This document shows positions 27,466 through 58,465 of a stretch of DNA of 64,000 nucleotides, one piece after another. Made by a program: the position numbers and the translations under genes. The notes under the pieces were generated by a model that saw nothing but the letters and a program-made list of their open reading frames with translations, had not been told where the DNA came from and ran no database searches. Where the stretch lies: the NCBI GenBank assembly GCA_965224085.1, contig CBDCYI010000004.1, positions 864,001 to 928,000 of the forward strand, in the 5' to 3' direction. Every line of letters starts with the position of its first letter. The stretch's first letter is position 1. Origin of the DNA: Candidatus Marinacidobacterales bacterium (GTDB taxonomy: Bacteria; Acidobacteriota; Vicinamibacteria; Marinacidobacterales; SMYC01).

Positions 27466-29498
27466 GTCGGGTCGGAGGGGGCGCACCGCAGCGCTGACCC
27501 CCGTCCGCCGCTCAAACCGGACATACAGTTTTCCCGTATCCGGCTTTCACAAAGGTTGGATTATTCATCGCGGCTTGATGGAAGGAATCAGGAAGACAAA
27601 GCGTACGAGGCCCATCTCATCGTAGAGCTGACGCTCCGGGAGCTGCTTCCACCCCCGACAGCGCCAGCGTTTGAACCGATGCGACCAGATACGTCGCAGG
27701 ATCCAACGATCGAGACGCGCGAAGAGCTTGCGGACGTGAGCTTTATGATAGTAAAGACCCCAACCGCGAATAACCGGGTTGATCTCGTCGATTAGCTGCT
27801 GCGTACTCACAGGAGCTTTGCGACAGGTCCGTCGCCGAATCTGATCCTTGAAGTGCTGGAGCGACTTCTGTCGAGGGTACGCGTACAGGTCACCCTTGCG
27901 GACACCCGTACGGATCTTGTGTGAGGGTAGGGCCAAAGGGCGACTACCCCGCTTGATCTTGTATCCCAAGAACTCGAAGCCGTGTGCAACGTGAACGATA
28001 CGAGTCTTCTCCACGTTCAAGGTTACACCCAACGTCGTAAGGATCATCCGGGCTTCGGCCAGCACCTTCTGGGCCTCTGCCTTGGTGCAGCATGTCACGA
28101 CCCAGTCGTCGGCATACCGCGTCAGGCGATAGCCACGATGGCGCATCTCCCGATCAAACGGAGTCAAAAGGACGTTACTTAAGATCGGTGAGACCACACC
28201 GCCTTGCGGTGCACCTTGCTCGGTCGGGAGCCGTCTCCCCTCCGCCATGCAGCCTGCTTTGAGCATGCTGCGAATAAGACGAAGGACGCGACCATCCGAC
28301 ACTCGCTTGGCAACAAGAGCGAGGAGCTTCTCATGGTCCACAGTCCCAAAGAAATTGGAAAGATCCGCATCCACGATCCACTCGTAACCCTCTTCGATCT
28401 CTTGCCAGATCTTGCGTAAAGCATCCTTTGTCGATCTTCCTCGTCGATATCCGAAGCTGGCGGCATCGAACACCTGCTCGAAGATCGGTTCCAACCGGTT
28501 CTGCAGTGCCTGCTGACACACGCGGTCATAAACGGCCGGAATGCCGAGCGGGCGGAACTTTCCCGGTTGTCCAGCCTTGGGAATGAGTTTCTGCCGAACA
28601 GGTAGTGGACGATAGGCATCGGTCTTGAGCTCCTCATGGAGTCGGTTGAGGTGCGCATCAAGCTGCTCCTCAAACTCGTCCAGAGTTTGTCCATCGATGC
28701 CACCGGCACCCTTGTTCCGCTTCACTCGGTTCCAGGCCAGCTCCAAGTTCTTCCGCTTGTATATCTTGTCCACCAGAGAGTGGACCTTCCTCTCACCCGT
28801 TGGGTTCAACCAGGCCGACAGTTTCCTCGGACGATCACTTCTGGGTCTTTCACTAAAGGAACTTATCCGCGTCATCGCCCTTACTCGTCTGTCATCCTTG
28901 TTGTCACCAACCACCTTTGCCAGCCCCCTTCCCCAGCCCACTCGGCTGCCGATCTCTCGATCACACGACTTTCACCGCGCTTCAGGTACTATTGGGCTGT
29001 CCGACGACTCACCCGGCTTCACTTCCCATTTCGCTCTCGCTTATAGGGTCGCTTATCCCGACGCCACTCGGGAACCCAATGAGCCCTCCTGGGGTCACGT
29101 CCAGATCTTCCGTACCGTGCCGTCCGCAAACACCTTGATTCGGTGGGTGAATGAGAACGCCTTCGCCTCCATAGTGCAGGCTCGACCTTGCCCCACCTTT
29201 GGCCGACCGGTTCATCAACGGGGTCGCCCCCTCGATTACGGCCCGGTACTGCTCCGCATACCCTTCAGATTCCACCTCGCGGTGGACACCCTGTCCTCCA
29301 GTTGTCCAGTGGACAGAACCCGAACTTAGGTACATCCCCTTGGCAGTAGCCATCGTTTCCAACTTCGTGCCCGTTTAGGGTTCTCCTTATCCGCGTTCCC
29401 CGGCCAGCGAGGCGTTACCCCCGCTTTTGGATATGGCGCTCCTCATCCGAGCACCAGAGGGACTTCAACCTTCCTGATCTGGACGCTGCCCAGCACAC
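27466..29498 (-). mobile_element. Inner group II intron, apparently complete (~2.03 kb)
   Basis: 5' GTGTG at 29498; DV gaaagccggatacgggaaaactgtatgtccggttt; DVI ending cccgAC at 27466; removal restores the outer catagt/actgaggaag. Confidence 0.9.
27565..28941 (-). CDS. ltrA: Group II intron reverse transcriptase/maturase without endonuclease domain (start uncertain)
   Basis: GAGGIDG, RPLGIP, GAPQGGVVSP, RYADD, FEFLGY, thumb/X domain INPVIRGW. Confidence 0.95.
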   Translation of the reverse strand: MGWGRGLAKVVGDNKDDRRVRAMTRISSFSERPRSDRPRKLSAWLNPTGERKVHSLVDKIYKRKNLELAWNRVKRNKGAGGIDGQTLDEFEEQLDAHLNRLHEELKTDAYRPLPVRQKLIPKAGQPGKFRPLGIPAVYDRVCQQALQNRLEPIFEQVFDAASFGYRRGRSTKDALRKIWQEIEEGYEWIVDADLSNFFGTVDHEKLLALVAKRVSDGRVLRLIRSMLKAGCMAEGRRLPTEQGAPQGGVVSPILSNVLLTPFDREMRHRGYRLTRYADDWVVTCCTKAEAQKVLAEARMILTTLGVTLNVEKTRIVHVAHGFEFLGYKIKRGSRPLALPSHKIRTGVRKGDLYAYPRQKSLQHFKDQIRRRTCRKAPVSTQQLIDEINPVIRGWGLYYHKAHVRKLFARLDRWILRRIWSHRFKRWRCRGWKQLPERQLYDEMGLVRFVFLIPSIKPR

Positions 29499-29894
29499 AC
29501 TATGAATCGGTCCGACTTCCGGCCTCAGCTCAGCACCGCGCTTCGGTTTTCCCTTGCGCGACGCCCCCATCGGTGACCATTCCGATGGACCCGGCCGGAC
29601 CTCCTGGGTCCCGAAAGGAACTCTTCGTACGTGATGTGGTCCACGACCCCGGCGGAGCGTAACCATCTCGCGATAGCGATGGCCCACATGCTGCCTTCAT
29701 TGACGGGAATCAACTCGGCCTTCCGCGATATTCAGCATTTCGAGGCTACATTCACACACCCTGCACGACCCCTGTCTACGCTTCGGACCCCGCGTTGCCA
29801 CGACGCCCGCAAGACTCGGTCCCGACCTGTCCGCTACGACTTTTGGTCGGATTGGACTTCCACCCATAGGCTCCTTTCAGTTAGCCCAGCGCAC

Positions 29895-35232: not shown

Positions 35233-35694
35233 AGGATACGGATGGTCGACGAAAATTGGGCACAGCTTGCCGAAGAGTTCCAGTCGCTCTTGAACCTTGA
35301 GGCACCACCTTTGGCCATCACGTTTTCGATGGAGGTCCCGGCGGGAGTCTCCCGTTACGCAGGACGGGTCGCCAAACCTGCGCAGGACGGTAGGACTGGC
35401 AAAGTGCCTGCGGGATGTGTCTTTTGGATGAAGGCGACCGACAGAACCTTTACGACCATGTCCGAGGACCACGCCAACTGTAGCGTTGGGAGTGTTACAC
35501 ATGGTTTCAAGACGCTCGACGAGGTTGCTCACAATGGCGATGTCACCACGTTGCTCGACAGCCGTTGGGTGACGATGGACATCGTACCGACCATTCCGGT
35601 GGTGAAGCAACGATACAACTACGTTACTTACGGCCCGCTGCAGGAGGCGGAGATGGACCCCGACGTCATCTTTCTGCGCCTCCGTGCGATCCAA

Positions 35695-36281
35695 CTGAGC
35701 GGGTGCGCTCCATCGCCTAAAGGCGATGGGTTCGCGGGCGACTAAAGTCGCCTAAAGGCGCACGGCGGAGGATTACTCGCTTACCCTGAACGACTCGTCG
35801 TCTTCCGGCAGCTCTCCTTGCAGCTCGATGTACTTGGCCACAACCTCATCGGTCACGTTTCCGCTCGTCGCTACAAAATAGCCGCGCGCCCACAGGTGCC
35901 GACCCCAAAACTTCTTGCGGATCGCTCGAAAATCACGCATCAGCTTGTGCGATGTCTTCCCCTTGATCGCCTGCATTACTCGGCTCGGCGACAGCCGTGG
36001 CGGCACGCTCAGCAACAGATGAACGTGCTCTGGCCGTACATGGCCCTTCAGTATTTCTATGTGGTGCGTCGCACAGATCTCTCTTATCAACTCCCGCAGG
36101 CGAAGTGCTACATCTCCTCTCAATACCGGCTTGCGGTACTTCGGGATGAATACGAAATGGTAGTTTAATTGATACGTCGTGTGCGATGATTTCCGATATC
36201 CTTTCATCCGGGGATCGTACCGCAAGCCTCCTAAAGGCTTCGCCTGAAGGCGAGGGGTTTCAACCATCCCCGAGTGAGACA
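35695..36281 (-). mobile_element. IS200-type element (tnpA only), second family member
   Basis: Hairpins ccatcgcctaaaggcgatgg and ttcgcctgaaggcgag; top strand starts TGTCTC after TAAG, ends TCAG; no TSD. Confidence 0.9.
35773..36207 (-). CDS. tnpA: IS200/IS605 Y1 transposase
   Basis: YHFVFIPKYR, EHVH, LWARGY, KYIELQ. Confidence 0.95.
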   Translation of the reverse strand: MKGYRKSSHTTYQLNYHFVFIPKYRKPVLRGDVALRLRELIREICATHHIEILKGHVRPEHVHLLLSVPPRLSPSRVMQAIKGKTSHKLMRDFRAIRKKFWGRHLWARGYFVATSGNVTDEVVAKYIELQGELPEDDESFRVSE

Positions 36282-36581
36282 CTTATGATTCTACACGACG
36301 CGATTCCTAACCTGCGCTTCGAAGGCAAGCCACAGTGCCACATCATCGCGATCGCGAAGGAACAAAACGAAGTGGCTGTTAGCGTCGGCTGCATGCTGAG
36401 CCGGGTTCGCACAGGGATGCCCAGCGACGAGGTTACGTGCGCGATACCGTCTGGTCGCTTCCGTGAACTGGTGAAGAAGCTTAGAGACACGTGTGCAGCC
36501 GATAACGCGGTTGCTCAGTACGCTGCTACGGATTCCGTCCGCTTTGCCGAGAAGTGCTACATCGTCTTCCGGGAAAAAAGC

Positions 36582-36914: not shown

Positions 36915-38667
36915 GAAGGCGAAGTTGTACGCCGTGGGTAGTCTTAGAGAGTCCTGCGAGGTAGAACGCTTGGGATTTATTGGATACGCGGCCCGCCGAA
37001 ACGTAACTCCGGGTCGTGACGTCGTCCGGATCTTCATTAACTGCGCGCTCACGGATGCGCCCACCGTCGGCCAACGACAACGCTTGAACGACCCCGCGGG
37101 CCTTTCCCCCCCAGACGATATCCGCTTTCTCCATGCCATCGACGTCCTTTTCGAGGAGCGCCGATGTCGATTCACGGGACTCGATACGCTGTCAGCTATT
37201 CGTAAGTTCCACCGCTTCATGGGTGCGCTCGGTGCGCGGGCACGCGAGATGGGGCAGGGCCACGACTGGCCATTCGAGTCGACAAGGAACTTGTTGGAGA
37301 CGCTCGCACGTATCAAGCACTCCCGCGACTACAGTTCGATCGCTCAGTCCCCTCAACTCCGCAGATAAACCGACACGAGGCTCTCGAACGGTCAGGCATG
37401 ACGCAGCCGCGAAAGTAGCGGTTACCGCCGCCTCAATCGTCTCCATTCTCGAATCCAACGCCGAACCGCGCCAGCTCAACGCCCGACGCGCCAATTCTGC
37501 GGACCGAGATCACGGGTTCAGTAAGAGGAAGCCAGCTGCCCCCTTCGTCTTCCCACCGTGCCAAGGCCGAGCGTAGGTCGGGGGCGTCTTTCGCTTCCTG
37601 CTCGCTCGCGGGCGCCGCCGTGCTCTCGCGTTCGAGCTTTAGCCGGAAGTTCCCGGTTTAGGCCAGACGTAATGTATTGAACGCGTGGAGTTTTTCATCA
37701 GGGAAGGTTTCCCGGCACTGGGAACAAACCGAGCAGTTGCATTGCGCGTTGTTGTGTTGAGTTGGCTTCGGTCACCATCTGGAATGGTGGAGCGGTCGGG
37801 TCGGCTTTGAGTTGGCAAAGGTTGAGACTGCGGGTAGCAAGCTCGGCAAGAAGCGTGGGGAAACTGTGAATAGGTAATCCGTCAGATGTGCGACGGACGC
37901 TCTTTTTGTTTTTGGCCGAAGTCGAGGGCAGAGCTGGCAAGACGGGGTCTCGGGTCTCGCGGTCGGCGTCAAGTTGCTCGTCGACGAAAAGTAGTGGAGC
38001 AAGGGCCTTTTTCATGTGCCATTGCACATAGTAGGCGAGCAAGCACAAGAAGATGTGTGCCCGCACGCGTTGGGCATCGCGATGGCGGATGGGTCGTACT
38101 AACAGGTCGATGCCCTTCAAACAACGAAAGGCTTGTTCAACCTGAGAGAGCCGCTTGTAGCTGCGCACGGTGTCCTCGGCCGAGAGATGCTCAAGCGGCT
38201 CGCTGGTGCGGATTACGTAGATGCCGTCGCGTTCCGATTCTCGGCGAATGCTTTCCTCGCGTCTGCTGTAGCTAAAAAGGCTATCTTCGATCTTCAGTGT
38301 GAAGTGCTTGCCCACTTTGTAATGGTTGAGCACCTTTCCGACCTTCTTGCCAATTTCAGCTTTGTCCAAAGGAGTTTTCGTTCGCCGGGCAACCTGTCGG
38401 CGGATCTTGTCGAACTTGGCCTCGGTCGCTTCAAGCAGGGCCTGGCGCTTCCTTCGCCTCTCTTCGGCCAGCAGAGGGTTGTAGCAAGCAATCAGTCGCT
38501 CACCGGGAAAATCAATAGAAGTGATCTCCGCCAGGTTTTTTTGGTCGAACAGCGACAGCTGCAAACACTCCGTGTCCAGTAGTTTGCGAATCGCTGTCGA
38601 ACGCAAGGCTGAGATCCAGCCAAGTCCTGGGTATTGCCTTAGAGCCTTAATCTGGGCAATAATAGAC

Positions 38668-38696
38668 TTGACTAACCTAGCCTCCTAGCATACCAT
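38668..38696 (+). promoter_or_regulatory. Sigma70-like promoter reading inward from the left IR
   Basis: TTGACT-17 bp-TACCAT; same geometry as at 56471. Confidence 0.7.
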
Positions 38697-38702
38697 CCCT
38701 CC

Positions 38703-38847
38703 CGTCACAATGAACCGCGTGTGGCTCGACCATCGGGTCACTCGCTAAATACAAGACCTCCTTCCCAGGGGGAAATAGGCGGGATCCTGCATGCCAACCA
38801 CATGCGGTTCGTTGTGACGACTGGCCCGGTGACCAATTCTCCGGGCT
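38703..38847 (+). ncRNA. Putative structured leader RNA, copy 1
   Basis: 22-bp closing stem cgtcacaatgaaccgcgtgtgg / ccacatgcggttcgttgtgacg, internal stems, second hairpin; covaries with copy 2. Confidence 0.65.
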
Positions 38848-38869
38848 CCAATCCACGAAAGGATGGCCC

Positions 38870-39361
38870 ATGCGGAGAGCAACATTGTTTCTACTTGTAG
38901 GTGTACTGGCTGGCTGTGGCGATGAGGGCGGGAGTACACCAACGTCCCCAGCGCCGGCGCCGACCACAACTCGTCAACCAAGGCCACCACGAAAGGCGAT
39001 CATCCATCTTGACGCGAATATTCCAGCCGTTCGCGTTACCGACCAGGGAAACGGCGTGATCCTAGATATAAATCTCGTAGAGCTAGGAGGCGTAGGCGCA
39101 ACAATCAACTTTATTAGACTAGATGTTTTTAGAGCGACAGGCTTTTTTGAAGAACGCCAGGAGTTATCAGGTGCCCGTCTTAGACGCGAACTTATTGGAC
39201 GAACTCGCGTTGAAGCCAATTCGCGAAGACGTTTTTCCGTCATTTTTTGGTTTAGGGCCACGGTGAAAAGAGGAAGGGGATTAGAAGTCACCGTTGGGCT
39301 TACCGATGACAACGGAAACGTGTTTGAGCTAAGTGAAGCGTTTGTTTTTACTAGAGCCTGA
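38870..39361 (+). CDS. Passenger lipoprotein (lipobox, Pro/Thr linker, beta-rich domain)
   Basis: MRRATLFLLVGVLAGC, PTSPAPAPTTT; GAAAGGA RBS. Confidence 0.8.
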   Translation: MRRATLFLLVGVLAGCGDEGGSTPTSPAPAPTTTRQPRPPRKAIIHLDANIPAVRVTDQGNGVILDINLVELGGVGATINFIRLDVFRATGFFEERQELSGARLRRELIGRTRVEANSRRRFSVIFWFRATVKRGRGLEVTVGLTDDNGNVFELSEAFVFTRA

Positions 39362-39455
39362 AGTGGAGGTCATTGCAATCAAGGCCGGAGGCTTCCGGCT
39401 AGGCGGTGGGCTTCGGTTCTGATATAGACTAGAGCCTGAAAAAGGAGGAAAGGCT

Positions 39456-39815
39456 GTGACCGAAACCAAGTGGCTAACCGCCATACACTATCTCTTTACC
39501 GAATCCAACGGGAAAATCGTTGCACATTGCTTGGATTTGGACATCATTTCTAGCGGGAGCACGAGAGAAGAAGCCCAAGAGAAGCTAAATGCCTGCGTGA
39601 AGCAACAGATTATGTCATGCTACCAGGAGAAGAATTACAGCCAATTGGTTTTTCAAGCTCCTGACAGCTATTGGAGAGAGTTTGATGAAGCCGTAGATCT
39701 GCCCTCATCTGTTCTCGAAATCGAGTTCCAAGGACCAACAACAACTAGACTGCACGCCCAATCGTTTGTGTGCCCTGGGCAATTGAAGTTAGAGGCCGCT
39801 TTGTGCGGTGCCTGA
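39456..39815 (+). CDS. HicB-like (partial RNase H fold) protein, passenger
   Basis: AGGAGG RBS; VAHCLDLDIISSGSTREEAQEKL resembles the HicB N-terminus. Confidence 0.6.
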   Translation: MTETKWLTAIHYLFTESNGKIVAHCLDLDIISSGSTREEAQEKLNACVKQQIMSCYQEKNYSQLVFQAPDSYWREFDEAVDLPSSVLEIEFQGPTTTRLHAQSFVCPGQLKLEAALCGA

Positions 39816-40039
39816 AAGATGTCCTGGCACCATTGGAAGAAAAAAGGGGCGTCAGGATCATCGGAACATGGAAACTAAAATGCCGTAATGGAATCACGCT
39901 GGCACACCCACACAGCATTTTCCCTTATGGCGGACCAAGGTATCAAATAGACACCACCAAAAACGAAAACCCAGAAATTACAACAGTCGAGATAGAGGCG
40001 TTGGAGCGCAGGTTTGGAAAGTTCTGGATGAAGGTATGA
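39770..40039 (+). CDS. Hypothetical passenger protein, possible cognate toxin (start uncertain)
   Basis: Overlaps the HicB-like ORF; low GC; no recognised motif. Confidence 0.4.
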   Translation: MPWAIEVRGRFVRCLKDVLAPLEEKRGVRIIGTWKLKCRNGITLAHPHSIFPYGGPRYQIDTTKNENPEITTVEIEALERRFGKFWMKV

Positions 40040-40281
40040 TTTTCTAAAAAAAGATCATAGGAAGAATCTTGTAGCTGTTCGTTCGGCGAACAGCTTAGGC
40101 GGTATCGGTAAAGCTTCCAAAGGAGAAGCTATAAGCCCATGAGAAAACCGATGATCATCCCCGAGCGCTACCTGGCTGGCACCCCCCTAACCACAAGATG
40201 TAGTGATCAAGCCGACCACAAGATGTTGTGGTTAGTGGAATGCCTGTCAAGGTTCACTTATAATCCCCCAAGGAAAGAACC

Positions 40282-40488
40282 ATGCTAAGGAAACCAGAAC
40301 TCCACGAGGGCGACGCCGCGCTAAACCGCTTCACCAAGGCCCTGAAGACGATCTTCTCAATACCGCGGAAGGACGCAGAGCGGATTCGGATGGAGGCCCG
40401 TACTCCGATGGCTAGACGGGTGTCTCCTGACCAATCAGCTCCAGATACGTCAACCGCTTCCCCACCGCCTGACGAAGAGCTCGAGTAA
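40282..40488 (+). CDS. Small ORF convergent with and overlapping the IS1595 transposase 3' end
   Basis: AAGGA RBS; EGDAALNRFTKALKTIFSIPRK amphipathic helix. Confidence 0.5.
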   Translation: MLRKPELHEGDAALNRFTKALKTIFSIPRKDAERIRMEARTPMARRVSPDQSAPDTSTASPPPDEELE

Positions 40489-41344
40489 AGCGCTCATCGT
40501 CCGTTCCGTGCCGCTCGTTGAAGCGGTACGCCTGCTCGTCCAGGTAGCGTGACAGGTGGAAGGGCTCAACGCTCACGTAGGTTCCATGGATCGCCCGTTT
40601 CAGCAGACTCCAGAAGTTCTCAATGCCGTTGGTGTGGACACGGCCATTGACGTAGGTTATGGCATGGTTCACTGTCCCGTGAGCGTATTCACGCTCGAGG
40701 CCATTGTAGGATGCTAGCGCGTCAGAGTAGAGCGCCGAGCCTGCAGCCACGTGCTTTTTGACTTCCCGTTGGAGAGTCTTCTTCTTCCGGTTGCTGACAA
40801 CCATGGTGCGAACGATGCCCCCTCGCTCCAGCATCCCAAGAACGGCCGTCTTGTCGGATGGACCTCGCCCTGTGATTCGCCGCCGCCGCTTGTCGGCGTG
40901 CATATTCCTGGCCTTCCCACCGATGAACGTCTCATCAACCTCGACCTCGCCAACCAGTTTCTCGAATGAACCGGAATGGAGCGCGAGTCGGATACGGTGT
41001 CCCATAAACCAAGCCGTTTTCTGACAGACGCCCACCGCGCGGTGAATCTCGTAGCTGCTCACACCGTTCTTGCAGTTCACCACTAGCCAGAGGACGGGGA
41101 GCCACTTGTCGAGGCCCAAGGGGGAATCCTCAAAGATGGTCCCGGTCTTCAGAGAAAACTGTCGCCGCTGGTGTTCCTCTGAACACTTCCATCGGCGCAC
41201 CCTGGCGAGCCAGTGAACTCTCTTGGACCCGCATGTGGGGCAGGTGACGCCCTCCGGCCATCGGAGTCCGATAAGGAAATCACGGCAACGGTCGAAATCC
41301 GAGAAGTATCTGATGGCCTCCAATAAAGTCTTTGGCTGCTTCAT
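40412..41344 (-). CDS. IS1595 (ISXO2-like) transposase
   Basis: Zn ribbon CPTCG..C; VEVDETFIGG, SD, VHTNGIENFWS.LKR, YLDE..YRFN. Confidence 0.95.
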   Translation of the reverse strand: MKQPKTLLEAIRYFSDFDRCRDFLIGLRWPEGVTCPTCGSKRVHWLARVRRWKCSEEHQRRQFSLKTGTIFEDSPLGLDKWLPVLWLVVNCKNGVSSYEIHRAVGVCQKTAWFMGHRIRLALHSGSFEKLVGEVEVDETFIGGKARNMHADKRRRRITGRGPSDKTAVLGMLERGGIVRTMVVSNRKKKTLQREVKKHVAAGSALYSDALASYNGLEREYAHGTVNHAITYVNGRVHTNGIENFWSLLKRAIHGTYVSVEPFHLSRYLDEQAYRFNERHGTDDERFTRALRQAVGKRLTYLELIGQETPV

Positions 41345-42511
41345 GTTCAAAGGATAGCATTCGATGCTAGGTTAGTCAAGTCTATTATTGCCTTAATCTG
41401 AGTCTGAGTGAGCAAGCCCCGGTCACCAACCAGCACCACCTGTTGAAGCTCAAAACGCTCACGAAGCTTTTGTACTTGATCCGGCAGTGTCGTCGGATCC
41501 CCTGTGTTCCCCGGGTAGACCTCCACGGCCACGGGACGTCCTTCGTGGTCCGTTAACACTCCATAGACAACGATGGGTTTGCCCTTTTTACCATCTCGGC
41601 CGTAGCCGAAAAGAGCCAGTGGACAGGTGCGTCCTTCATAGTAGCTACTGCTCACATCGTAAAGCACCTGTGCACCCTCGGAAAGGTGTCGACTCGCCAG
41701 CTTCTTTTCGATCCGAGACTGGCGCTGGATCAACCAATCCATTGCCGCATAGAGATCATCTTCGTCCGCATCGACCACGCCGAGCTCTTGCGCCAGCGTT
41801 GTCGTGTGCCACAGTCGTGTCGTGCCCAACTTCGAGCTGGGATGAATGAGTTGCTCGGCAATCATGGCGATAACCAGATCGCGTTCGCGACATCGTTTCG
41901 ACGCGATGAGTCTATCGAGTTCCAGTTGGTGGATGGTGCCGAGCACTGCCTCGACATGGCCGTGGGGCAGTGTCCGCTGCACGACGAACACATCCGACGG
42001 AGCCATCAAGGGCTCGTCTCTCAGTAAGCGTCGCAGGGCTTCGACCTTGGCCTTGGGCCACTCCGTCAGATTGGCGATGGTGCGTTTTCGGATGCGCTTT
42101 CCCTCTCGCCAACCCTCGCGCAACAAGATGGCTGGCCGGGAGTTCCGGTTGGGAACGATGTCGACATACATGGCAACAATAATACACATAAAAAGCTTAA
42201 TATCAATATAAAACAGATCAATACATGGGAAAACTTGTGGGGCCACATTTTCTCGTTTCCCACTTAGAATCAATGAATTACACCCCGTTCTAGGTGTTTC
42301 TGTTAGGGGAACTTCTGGTTAGAGGGCGTTTCTGCGCCTGCCCGGAGCTCGGTGTCGTTCGCCCAAGCATAAACCGATCCTGCATCAGCGCCTTTCTGAG
42401 GGTCGGCTTGACCCGCTCCGCTCCTGCAGAACACGTAGTCGATCATGACGGTTCGGGCACGCGGTAGGGGTCAGCGACCCGCCGTCTGGCTCTACCACCG
42501 ATTCTGCGTGA

Positions 42512-55667: not shown

Positions 55668-56298
55668 ATGAGTAAAATCAACGCTATCGTACTGATCGCG
55701 TCTCTATCGGCAGGCACGGGCTCCGCGACGCCCATCATTCACGAGGTTTTCTACGACGCAATCGGCGCCGACACGAGCTCCGTATTCACGGAGCTTTATG
55801 GAAGCCCCGGGACCTCTTTCGACGGCTGGTCGCTCGTCGGCGTAAACGGCGCGAACGGAATGCCCTATCGCACCGTCGATCTCACGGGTGCCGTTATCCC
55901 AAGCGACCGGGTTCTGGTGCTCGCGACGGCGTCGGCCATAGGTAGCCTTCTCGCTGTGCGCGACTTCGTGGCGAACGTCGACTGGCAGAACGGCCCGGAC
56001 GCCGTGCTGCTTTATGACGCGTTTGGCGGGCTCGCGGACGCACTTCAATATGGTCACGCCGGCACCCATAACCGCGGCGCAGGAGCCCCGGCAGCGGACC
56101 CCCCGGCCGGTCTCGGGCTTACACGTGACGCACTGAGCACCGACACCGGCGACAACGCGACGGATTTCTTCGCGCTGCCGCCCACACCCGGTTTCCGCGC
56201 CGCCCCCACCCGCGTCTCCGAGCCGAACGTCTTCGGACTCGTCCTCCTGGCCGCGTGGGCCACCGCGCCGTCGTCGCCGTCCAGGGAGCGTCGAGTGA
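55668..56298 (+). pseudogene. Lamin-tail-like exported protein with frameshifted PEP-CTERM-like sorting signal
   Basis: IHEVFYD..G.D, WQNGPD, D..DN..DF...PTPG, VSEP plus hydrophobic stretch; RRRRR tail and stop lie in the +1 frame. Confidence 0.6.
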
Positions 56299-56308
56299 GC
56301 GGGTCCCT

Positions 56309-56451
56309 TCAATTGGCTGCCTTGGAGCCGCCAATACGATTCCGAATCGCGGCCCTCTCTTCGGGCGTAATCGGACGATCGGGTTGTGAAGTCACACGCG
56401 TGTGGATGGCGCGAAACTCCTCAACCAACTCCGGACTGTCCATAAAAAAAG
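56309..56451 (-). pseudogene. Probable C-terminal end of the cupin gene that starts at 58750
   Basis: FFMDSPELVEEFRAIH...* abuts the IS1595 end on the same strand as the cupin N-part. Confidence 0.5.
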
Positions 56452-56470
56452 GGTGAATTATAAGTAAACC

Positions 56471-56499
56471 TTGACAAGGACTGCCCATTAGAATACCCT
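56471..56499 (+). promoter_or_regulatory. Sigma70-like promoter reading inward from the left IR
   Basis: TTGACA-17 bp-TACCCT. Confidence 0.7.
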
Positions 56500-56505
56500 T
56501 CCCAC

Positions 56506-56646
56506 CGTCACACGAACGCGTGCGGCTCAACTATCGGGTCACTCGCTGAATACAATACCCTCCCCATAGGGAAATAGGCGAGATCCTGCTTGCTACCGCA
56601 TGCGTTTCGTGTGACGACTGGCCCGGTGACCAATTCACCGGGCCAG
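56506..56646 (+). ncRNA. Putative structured leader RNA, copy 2
   Basis: Stem cgtcacacgaacgcgtgcgg / ccgcatgcgtttcgtgtgacg; hairpin ctggcccggtga-ccaat-tcaccgggccag. Confidence 0.65.
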
Positions 56647-56671
56647 TAATCCACGAAAGGACGCTTCGAGA

Positions 56672-56858
56672 ATGCTCATGCGGAGATCAGCATTGTTTCT
56701 ACTTATAGGTGTATTGGCTGGCTGTGGCGATGAGGGCGATAGTACACCAACGTCCCCAGCGCCGGCACCAACCACAACTCGTCAACCAACGCCAAGGCCA
56801 GCGCCAGCACCCAGACGCCCAGCCGATATCAGCTTGGCCGGTGAATACGAATGCACTA
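56672..56858 (+). pseudogene. Passenger lipoprotein N-terminus, cut by an IS200 fragment
   Basis: MRRSALFLLIGVLAGCGDEGDSTPTSPAPAPTTTRQP, near-identical to the 38870 ORF start. Confidence 0.8.
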
Positions 56859-57113
56859 GTGAACAACCACCGCCTAGAAGGCGGTGGCTTCAAGGGCTGT
56901 CAATTGGAAATTGACTGTCGTCGTGAAGAGGCTCGCCATCCTGGGAGTCTATGTACTCCTTTACCATCTCGTCCGTTATGCTTCCTGAACTCACCGCCAG
57001 ATATCCTCGGGCCCAGAAGTGCCGGCCCCAAAACTTCTTCCTCAGGTGAGCAAACTCCTGAAGGAGTACTCGGGAGCTTATTCCTTTTAGCCACTGCACG
57101 ATCGTACTCAGGT
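56859..57113 (-). mobile_element. tnpA: Truncated copy of the 16638 IS200 element (right end and tnpA 3' part)
   Basis: Appears identical by eye to 16638-16892. Confidence 0.92.
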
Positions 57114-57349
57114 TCGACGAGAAGTACGGGTTCAGGCAAGGAGAGATAATCGACGACATCGAAAAAGTGTCGGGTAAAATCGACGGGCTGTCGTCAAAGC
57201 TCGACGCGATGGGTCACCGGTTCAGCACCCTTGAGCACAATTTTGGAGTATTCGGTCAGAAGCTAGACCTCATTGGGCCGTAGGACCGAGAAGATGGATA
57301 AGCGGCTCGAACGCGTAGAGGACCGGGTCGGTAACATCAAGGTGAAGCT

Positions 57350-57541
57350 ATGAGACCACCGATGATCATCCCCGAGCGCGACCTGGCCGGCGCCACGCCG
57401 GAGAGATTGGCCCGCGCGTTGCTGAGTCCCTTACGACCTCGCCATCGAACTGAGCCCGTTCTTGGCGACGAGGTCACGGTAGAGAAGTCGGTGTCCGACA
57501 AGCCGAGCGACGGTGTCGAGCATTTGGTCGAGAGTTCCTAG
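57350..57541 (+). CDS. Small ORF convergent with and overlapping the IS1595 transposase 3' end
   Basis: MRPPMIIPERDLAGATPERLARALL; related start also present at 40140. Confidence 0.5.
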   Translation: MRPPMIIPERDLAGATPERLARALLSPLRPRHRTEPVLGDEVTVEKSVSDKPSDGVEHLVESS

Positions 57542-58411
57542 GTCGCGGATGTTGTGCTTCTCAGCGAACTCATTAACGTAGCGTTGTAAGTGCTTGGGGC
57601 TCATCTTGTGGAACGCCCCCTTGTGCGCCCGCTTGAGCATCGACCAGAAGCTCTCAATCCCGTTGGTGTGCACCATTCCGTTGACGTACTCTTTGACGCT
57701 GTGCTTCACCGTCTCGTGATTGGGTAGACCGACATAGCCTCTGTGGTCGTCGGTGTAGAGCTTCGCGCTAGGATCGACATTCTTCGCGACGAAGCCTTGG
57801 AGCGTCGGTTGGTCGGTGTTGCCGATGACCTCGGCGCTGACACGGTTCGTCCGGCGGTCCTTCGCGCCGATGACGGCCGTCTTCCCTGCGGATCCTCGGC
57901 CCTTAATAGCCTGCTCGCGCTTGTGGGCGTGCTGCATGTTGCGAGCCTTCCCGCCGAAGAAGGTTTCGTCTACCTCGACAGGCCCGGCGAACGATTTGCC
58001 GTTAGGACCGCTCCACGCTTCTCGAATCCGATGGAGCATGAACCAAGCCGCGGCCTGTGAGACGCCGATGTCTCGGTGGAGCTTCATGCTCGAGACGCCT
58101 TTGAGACTAGTCAAGCAGAGGTAGATGGCGATAACCCATTTGCGGAGCGCGATCTTAGAATGGGCAATAGGGGTGCCCGTGCGAACGCTGAAGTAGCTCC
58201 GGCAGGTGGAGCACCAGTAGGGCATCGGCTTTTCGTTCGGGACTTCGCTGGTGCTGAGGCTACCGCAATGTCCGCAGCACCGAGTGCCATGCCAGATTGC
58301 AGCCTCGAACCATTTGGTTGCCGCTTCATCGGTCGGGAACATGTCCATGAGCTGAACAACGGTTATGCCTTCCCGGTGCCCTCGCCCTGGGGAGTTGTAT
58401 CGCGTCATCAT
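57431..58411 (-). CDS. IS1595 (ISXO2-like) transposase
   Basis: CGHCG..CSTC, VEVDETFFGG, YTDD, VHTNGIESFWSMLKR. Confidence 0.95.
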   Translation of the reverse strand: MMTRYNSPGRGHREGITVVQLMDMFPTDEAATKWFEAAIWHGTRCCGHCGSLSTSEVPNEKPMPYWCSTCRSYFSVRTGTPIAHSKIALRKWVIAIYLCLTSLKGVSSMKLHRDIGVSQAAAWFMLHRIREAWSGPNGKSFAGPVEVDETFFGGKARNMQHAHKREQAIKGRGSAGKTAVIGAKDRRTNRVSAEVIGNTDQPTLQGFVAKNVDPSAKLYTDDHRGYVGLPNHETVKHSVKEYVNGMVHTNGIESFWSMLKRAHKGAFHKMSPKHLQRYVNEFAEKHNIRDLGTLDQMLDTVARLVGHRLLYRDLVAKNGLSSMARS

Positions 58412-58465
58412 GATCGTAGAATACACGATCACGGGTGCCTTGTCAATCGTTTCTTATAATTCCCC

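Follow-up and report, generated by a model that had tools for sequence, protein, structure and literature searches.

RNAs with a layout like that of the RNA reported here come from phages. In the passages of the literature cited here, CI of satellite phage P4 and IsrK of Gifsy-1 are short RNAs derived from a leader that act in trans on their own long transcript, CI by causing termination and IsrK by activating translation (PMC4825925). CI pairs with two targets, seqA and seqC, one on either side (PMC4825925), while C4 has the a and b regions as its targets (PMC2864571; PMC8198154), and both C4 and CI are described as RNase P substrates (PMC5499578). Many genomes carry annotations of a further RNA, sRNA-Xcc1 (RF02221), for which a role in virulence is discussed. 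It has been seen as a free 88-nt RNA by Northern blot and RACE (PMC2996969), and is reported upstream of symE in integron cassettes (10.1101/2025.06.18.660453), as tandem copies in an island of Xylella and in one case next to hits for C4 and isrK (PMC12189769), and in APSE phages (10.1101/2020.03.17.996009); two Rfam papers merely list it. The passages of these sources give no mechanism for it and do not connect it with secreted cargo, with IS1595 or with C4-like action; this scope does not extend to the paper that defined the family, which may cover transposon contexts or flanking matches. An IS1595 passenger with a structured regulatory leader of its own was likewise not found in the literature searched.

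In the window (the whole 64,000-nt stretch of DNA analysed), two IS1595-family elements each carry such a leader. We think it fairly probable that the leader is a self-targeting antisense module of the C4/CI type, belonging to the sRNA-Xcc1 class and travelling as a passenger of IS1595.

Two IS1595 elements, their passengers and promoters

Element 1 (38655..41392) has perfect inverted repeats, with the left one at 38655..38681 (+) and an identical right one at 41366-41392, and an 8-bp target-site duplication (38647-38654 and 41393-41400). It interrupts another DDE transposase gene, which we take to carry the IS1634 label; Pfam DDE_Tnp_1 is found on each half, and the empty-site joint from 38643 to 41390 was seen in one DNA run. 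The features of an IS1595 member (an ISXO2-like DDE transposase with a zinc ribbon, terminal inverted repeats and an 8-bp duplication) are all found in element 1, whose transposase (40412..41350, -) is convergent with the cassette. Element 2 (56452..58465, ends approximate) has imperfect inverted repeats and a transposase at 57431..58432 (-); we sought a clean target-site duplication at its ends and found none. The preliminary description of this DNA had proposed two IS1595 elements of the same layout, which was borne out: both transposases match PF12762 (PF12760 was also seen), share 40% identity and face the cassette.

In element 1, the leader is followed by a gene for a 163-aa lipoprotein (38870..39361, +; RBS near 38858-38863) with a lipobox, a Pro/Thr linker and an all-beta domain, and by two more passenger ORFs of 119 and 89 aa without significant family (39456..40039, +). 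The 119-aa protein presumably resembles the N-terminus of a HicB-type antitoxin (best Pfam E=0.096), for which the following ORF may encode a partner. A remnant of an element-2-type IS1595, consisting of a piece like 57350-57395 and an element-2-type inverted repeat pointing left, lies inside element 1 (40139-40270), which therefore appears to be composite. As first described, a lipobox ORF follows an RBS in both copies, but in element 2 a 256-bp IS200/Y1-type mini-element (56858..57113), present in the genome in 37 copies no shorter than 250 nt, truncates the homologous ORF (56678..56914, +; identified by comparison with copy 1) to 78 aa. In the six other genome copies of element 2 that we checked, the lipoprotein is broken or ends differently (49-155 aa). 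Elsewhere in the window are a distant, full IS200 tnpA (35773-36282, within 35693-36283) that is related to the mini-element and has at least six genome copies, and a group II intron (27466-29860, -) around a 458-aa ORF, with RF02005 and RF00029 both over cut-off. The end of a gene for a lamin-tail-domain secreted protein (55668-56312) abuts element 2.

The promoter read from the sequence in the preliminary description is present in both copies: TTGAC, 17 nt, then TACCAT or TACCCT, with the outer stem beginning 6 nt past the -10 box. In copy 1 the -35 box (38668-38673) lies in the left inverted repeat and the -10 box at 38691..38696 (+), placed by the position of YAnnnT relative to stem P1, and the predicted transcript start is about 38703-38704. 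In copy 2 the promoter spans 56471..56499 (+), with the -35 box at 56471-56476, also in the inverted repeat, and the -10 box at 56494-56499. However, the RNA end is not alone in having this promoter. TTGAC-17 nt-TAnnnT occurs at all four element ends, and in both elements the copy in the other inverted repeat faces the transposase; the promoter is therefore ordinary element design and, judged from these motifs, drives the transposase from one inverted repeat and the passenger from the opposite repeat. The relatives introduced below resemble the window in this respect: a -10-like hexamer (YAnnnT) lies 4-9 nt before stem P1 in 24/25 Acidobacteriota-like members (controls 8, 3 and 2) and in 17/32 other members, the two groups being set by record title and likeness. 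Contigs from three RNA runs (X1-X3) contain other parts of element 1 and leave 38608-39439 uncovered, although contigs cannot show absence. Copies near IS1-family elements (L002, L003, L005, L011, L227, L232 and L244) have a 16-bp GC-rich palindrome overlapping the promoter, ~60-75 nt before the core, which is possibly an operator or an IS end.

Two folds and a variable guide

The two leaders have fold z-scores of -6.2 and -7.6, with 0/200 shuffles equally good, in line with the multi-stem structure first proposed. That proposal also drew on two-sided changes between the copies. A conserved RNA is indeed supported, but the two copies alone are weak evidence because they are closely related (79% identity in the RNA and 92% in the first 115 nt of the ORF). 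BLAST gave matches in 7/41 related genomes, including the window's own, and a scan for the core motif, with each species represented by a single genome, yielded at least 83 loci, mainly from Acidobacteriota (Vicinamibacterales, Ca. Marinacidobacterales) and Alphaproteobacteria. We reduced 110 core matches to 90 (15 dropped by eye as having no paired 3' half, and 5 by script) and these to 75 non-redundant loci; 68 were aligned, and 7 with long insertions were left out. Covariation in this larger alignment, suggested as a check in the preliminary description, was 0.40 for the outer helix, compared with 0.235 after shuffling and at most 0.14 in slid registers. Scans with the 3' motif returned mostly chance matches (the RNA was present in 0/4 viral loci and, among 401 genomes of the phylum, in 2/13 loci outside the window's own genome), and a scan with the Rfam-consensus word returned 0 viral loci.

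In fold A of copy 1, the 5' arm (38703..38724, +), which corresponds to an a1-type target, pairs with 38798-38819 to form the 22-bp stem P1. In fold B, comparison and alignment delimit an sRNA-Xcc1-like domain (38731..38835, +) closed by an outer helix (38731-38740 with 38822-38831). Within it are P3 (38741-38746 with 38778-38783), the conserved AAUACAANA loop (38747-38756), the P4 hairpin and the guide (38784-38821), and the domain ends in ACCA (38832-38835). A second hairpin from the fold computation, P6 (38823..38846, +), sequesters the outer helix's 3' strand in fold A; it was weak in the partner-swap test described below (8/75). RNA copy 2 (56506..56647, +) starts with its 5' arm at 56506 and continues with an outer helix (56532-56541 with 56619-56628), ACCA (56629-56632) and P6, which ends at 56647.

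Among the 68 aligned relatives, the outer helix is paired in 91.8% of cells, a percentage inflated by our locus filter, which required an outer helix of at least 6 bp, and has two-sided changes at 5/10 pairs; P3 is paired in 94.6% of cells. The GGUCAC/GUGACC pairing put forward earlier has to be given up, as it is found in 63.6% of cells against 91.8% for the neighbouring YRYCGGGYNR / CCCGRYR. The internal loop AAUACAANA / GAAUA is invariant (68/68 sequences), and the hairpin adjoining it is variable. A third subtype has an enlarged P4 arm with a conserved GGGUAGCUCCC hairpin (G000:C4:498906, C5:2264974, L234-L237, L244, L245, L249, L251 and L252).

The guide, which runs from P3 to the 3' strand of the outer helix, varies freely, yet it complements the molecule's own 5' arm. 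When partners were swapped between relatives, the own arm ranked in the top 5% for 52/75 and best of all for 44/75, compared with 6/75 for a control window, and within the window's family it was the best match of the guide in 17/20. The predicted pairing energy is -25 to -27 kcal/mol with the guide of copy 2, compared with -34 to -39 kcal/mol for a matched guide. The resulting stem P1 averages 19-20 bp. P1 and the outer helix cross and are presumably too long to coexist, so the RNA would adopt either fold A or fold B. An upstream hairpin (P0) was rejected by the same test (2/75).

NCCA follows the outer helix in 21/62 loci that were found without the 3' end (controls 3, 1, 2 and 2). It also does so in 19/21 family members, which came from a model that includes the 3' end, and in subtypes with two helix lengths. 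At the level of sequence, a helix followed by NCCA matches the signature of an RNase P-type substrate.

The predicted fold A is more stable than fold B by ~29 kcal/mol in copy 1, in a range of ~20-40 kcal/mol. P1 also begins at the predicted +1, several RNA copies in the window's genome are deletion derivatives, and the family has neither an RBS-side site nor a switching direction (see below). P1 might then trap the guide for good and close the 5' end of the mRNA, making the leader of this clade a stabiliser or translation damper with a vestigial fold B. We consider this quite unlikely, since the outer helix, NCCA and the loop are conserved and covarying in the clade, a pattern that requires fold B to be under selection. 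It is barely credible that the structure is an HDV-like ribozyme, or a hairpin that works at the DNA level in transposition or recombination. The location at IS ends would fit, as would the strand order, which we assume resembles the HDV pseudoknot, but many G-U pairs are retained, a promoter lies 6 nt ahead and the RNA also occurs far from IS ends; the ribozyme was rejected as a candidate because the linker for the catalytic C is not conserved.

Relationship to sRNA-Xcc1 and C4

The preliminary description took the RNA for an undescribed family, which does not hold. At the gathering threshold, Rfam has no match at either copy, but both match RF02221 below its cut-off (22.0 and 24.8 bits; cut-off 53). 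Relatives reach RF02221 at 29-40 bits (8/19 loci), one seed member (L129/L180) scores 55.8 and is over the cut-off, and our model R1 recovers 18/18 supplied RF02221-derived loci, 17 of them from outside the R1 seed. Because these intermediates bridge the gap in score, we place the leader with RF02221; on sequence comparison, it is a distant, 5'-extended relative of sRNA-Xcc1, homologous though under the cut-off. The two RNAs have in common the outer helix, a AAUACAANACC / GGGAAUA arm, a second arm, a 3' end motif and a mobile-element setting. Unlike sRNA-Xcc1, the window RNA scores far under the cut-off and has a longer second arm, and its 5' arm is fused, giving one ~20-bp stem straight after the promoter with no terminator between. 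It also differs in its weak RBS-side site, its lipoprotein cargo and its IS1595 carrier in Acidobacteriota. What the window copies add to the class is this IS1595 vehicle, an Acidobacteriota clade and the NCCA signature.

RF02221 gave 22 hits in 71 genomes; we set aside 4 as near-duplicates and 2 whose genome is unpublished, and analysed the other 16. The best match of the guide was the member's own upstream site in 8/16 and its own downstream site in 7/16 (control 1/16), and the downstream site typically extends into the Shine-Dalgarno sequence. Downstream proteins were an antirepressor, Rha or related phage regulators in 3/12. As far as sequence can tell, these members show the phage C4/CI layout: a target, the RNA, and a second target over the RBS. 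This comparison offers a testable mechanism for sRNA-Xcc1, as a C4/CI-like RNA directed against its own leader. It also points to a branch outside phage immunity operons, located on small transposons before unrelated secreted and lipoprotein genes.

The leader shares with C4 of phages P1/P7 (RF01695, a1b1 target motif) a three-way junction with an outer stem and an antisense region matched by targets within the same transcript, and members of its family precede antirepressor genes. Nevertheless, we do not class it as a C4 member. The C4 (RF01695) and c4-2 models have no match to either copy at E up to 10, the AAUACAA loop conserved here is absent from those C4 consensus rows that were available, and the cargo is not icd/ant; the new variant lies in the RF02221 class. 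CI and IsrK also had no sequence match to either copy in the Rfam model search. The likeness to P4 CI and P1 C4, first suggested for a switch-like and probably processed RNA, is supported more strongly than was claimed, at the level of layout.

Published accounts, in the passages cited, treat sRNA-Xcc1 as acting in trans on other genes (10.1101/2025.06.18.660453; PMC12189769; PMC2996969), and the leader could similarly be a stand-alone sRNA against host genes with an incidental neighbouring gene. This is very unlikely here, given that the guide changes with its own leader and not with host sequence, and that the start codon lies ~35-55 nt downstream in most members with an ORF.

Cargo genes, control and carriers

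An ORF with an RBS follows 48/75 members, mostly at the spacing just given. By a crude hydropathy rule, 37/48 of these downstream ORFs have a hydrophobic N-terminus, compared with 41/127 neighbouring ORFs (Fisher p=1.5e-7, with kin not independent). The 48 proteins form 42 BLAST clusters, 31 with a signal-like member, and in a Pfam search of 51 downstream proteins most had no family and 4 were SNase-like. The downstream genes are mostly unrelated genes for signal-peptide proteins. The lipoprotein of copy 1 has no Pfam or PHROG family and its Atlas neighbours are unnamed; a single-sequence model is all-beta (pLDDT 64) and has no PDB match at E<=0.001. Between the window copies, the RNA and signal peptide are far better conserved than the C-terminal domain of the lipoprotein, which suggests that the 5' module has been exchanged.

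A second target beside the RBS is significant across 44 members (p=1e-6) but falls short of significance among 18 Acidobacteriota-like members (p=0.07) and in the window's family (own site best in 1/20, p=0.22). The 7-bp site next to the RBS of copy 2 ranks in the top 3% of shuffles, and the match of copy 1 is unremarkable (rank 0.72 against swaps). Opening the RBS is computed to cost 8.3 kcal/mol in fold A vs 10.4 in fold B for copy 1, and 6.6 vs 7.8 for the copy-2 type. Across members, the opening energies gave p=0.054 one way, p=0.01 the opposite way and p=0.47 in the family, and which direction is favoured depends on the model used. The view that the leader probably switches its own cargo gene off therefore draws on its analogy with C4 of P1 and CI of P4. 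A candidate RBS-hiding hairpin freed in fold B was rejected (1/44 in a partner-swap test, which cannot detect conserved pairings such as those visible by eye in one subgroup). In the 1.5-Mb genome G441, which has 22 units, several units combine an arm, a guide and an RBS-side site in front of a lipoprotein gene, and copies that lack the arm have the same guide as a neighbouring full unit.

In the self-targeting mechanism that we infer, a transcript from the IR promoter would immediately pair its 5' arm with the internal guide (fold A), leaving the cargo expressible. If the arm were removed, or held by the guide of another molecule, the domain would refold into fold B, in which an acceptor-like helix has NCCA at its end and from which RNase P could excise an RNA of ~105 nt. 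This RNA would pair in trans with the arms of newly made transcripts of any element whose guide matches and, where present, with the RBS-side site, giving more mature RNA and turning the cargo down. The outcome might be a burst of surface protein on arrival in a naive cell, followed by sequence-specific silencing.

Several findings count against this model. The RBS-side target is weak in the clade and the direction of RBS opening is inconsistent, the ~29 kcal/mol advantage of fold A leaves the first mature RNA unexplained, and pairing does not account for the invariance of the AAUACAANA/GAAUA loop. That invariance (68/68) would instead suit a sensor acting only in cis, in which binding of the loop by a metabolite, or by a protein of the host or element, makes fold A give way to fold B, with the variable stem as an anti-aptamer; two exclusive folds, the strong bias to envelope genes and the occurrence of tandem units fit it too. 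Even so, such a sensor seems unlikely. Both G441 and RF02221 members have guides that match second sites over the RBS, armless copies and their neighbours have guides in common, NCCA is kept, and sRNA-Xcc1 was seen, in the passages cited, as a free 88-nt RNA (PMC2996969). A riboswitch, whose downstream genes would be tied to a single ligand, does not fit, with 42 unrelated clusters among 48 proteins and no consistent switch at the RBS.

A bolder version of self-targeting, which we regard as doubtful, is a portable, programmable and self-propagating RNA switch, with a constant RNase P scaffold and a variable guide of ~20 nt fused to its own target. If true, one mature RNA would convert new transcripts into itself, giving heritable, address-specific silencing that IS1595 and IS1 would spread, and hosts would retain armless copies for repression in trans, the number of units reaching 22 in one 1.5-Mb genome. 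Envelope proteins would then be under an RNA-only regulon and the function of RF02221 would be reassigned. Provided that guide and arm tolerate joint replacement, the module would be a compact orthogonal RNA switch.

The assignment of the RNA to IS1595 elements was correct but too narrow; the RNA is carried there, but also in IS1, P4-like integrase, prophage and housekeeping settings. In the window's own genome, model R1 finds 12 copies of three subtypes, 8/12 with a convergent IS1595 transposase within 6 kb. Tabulating the neighbours, as proposed at the outset, gave the hydrophobic N-termini reported above and an IS1595 transposase in 17/86 loci (1.5-3 kb flanks); one is the window's own, and 9 of the other 16 are convergent as in the window. 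Of 26 family copies outside the own genome, 9 lie within 5 kb of IS1595 sequence, 4 (including 2 duplicates) reproduce the complete layout of the window and 4 lie beside an IS1-family transposase. Other contexts, from a survey in which 129/369 neighbouring ORFs were scanned, include IS3, IS5, IS6, IS256, ISL3, integrases (P4-like), prophage genes and housekeeping genes. The RNA is also found on phage contigs that encode a DNA methylase. IS1595 is one of several carriers.

In a genome with 10 units (G442), four tandem units precede one membrane-protein gene between housekeeping genes (L068:3000-3580). In Alphaproteobacteria, an apparently fixed chromosomal copy lies beside acs and rsmB, before a gene for a secreted SNase-like protein (L054, L056, L075 and L107); a similar copy (L090) follows a tRNA gene.
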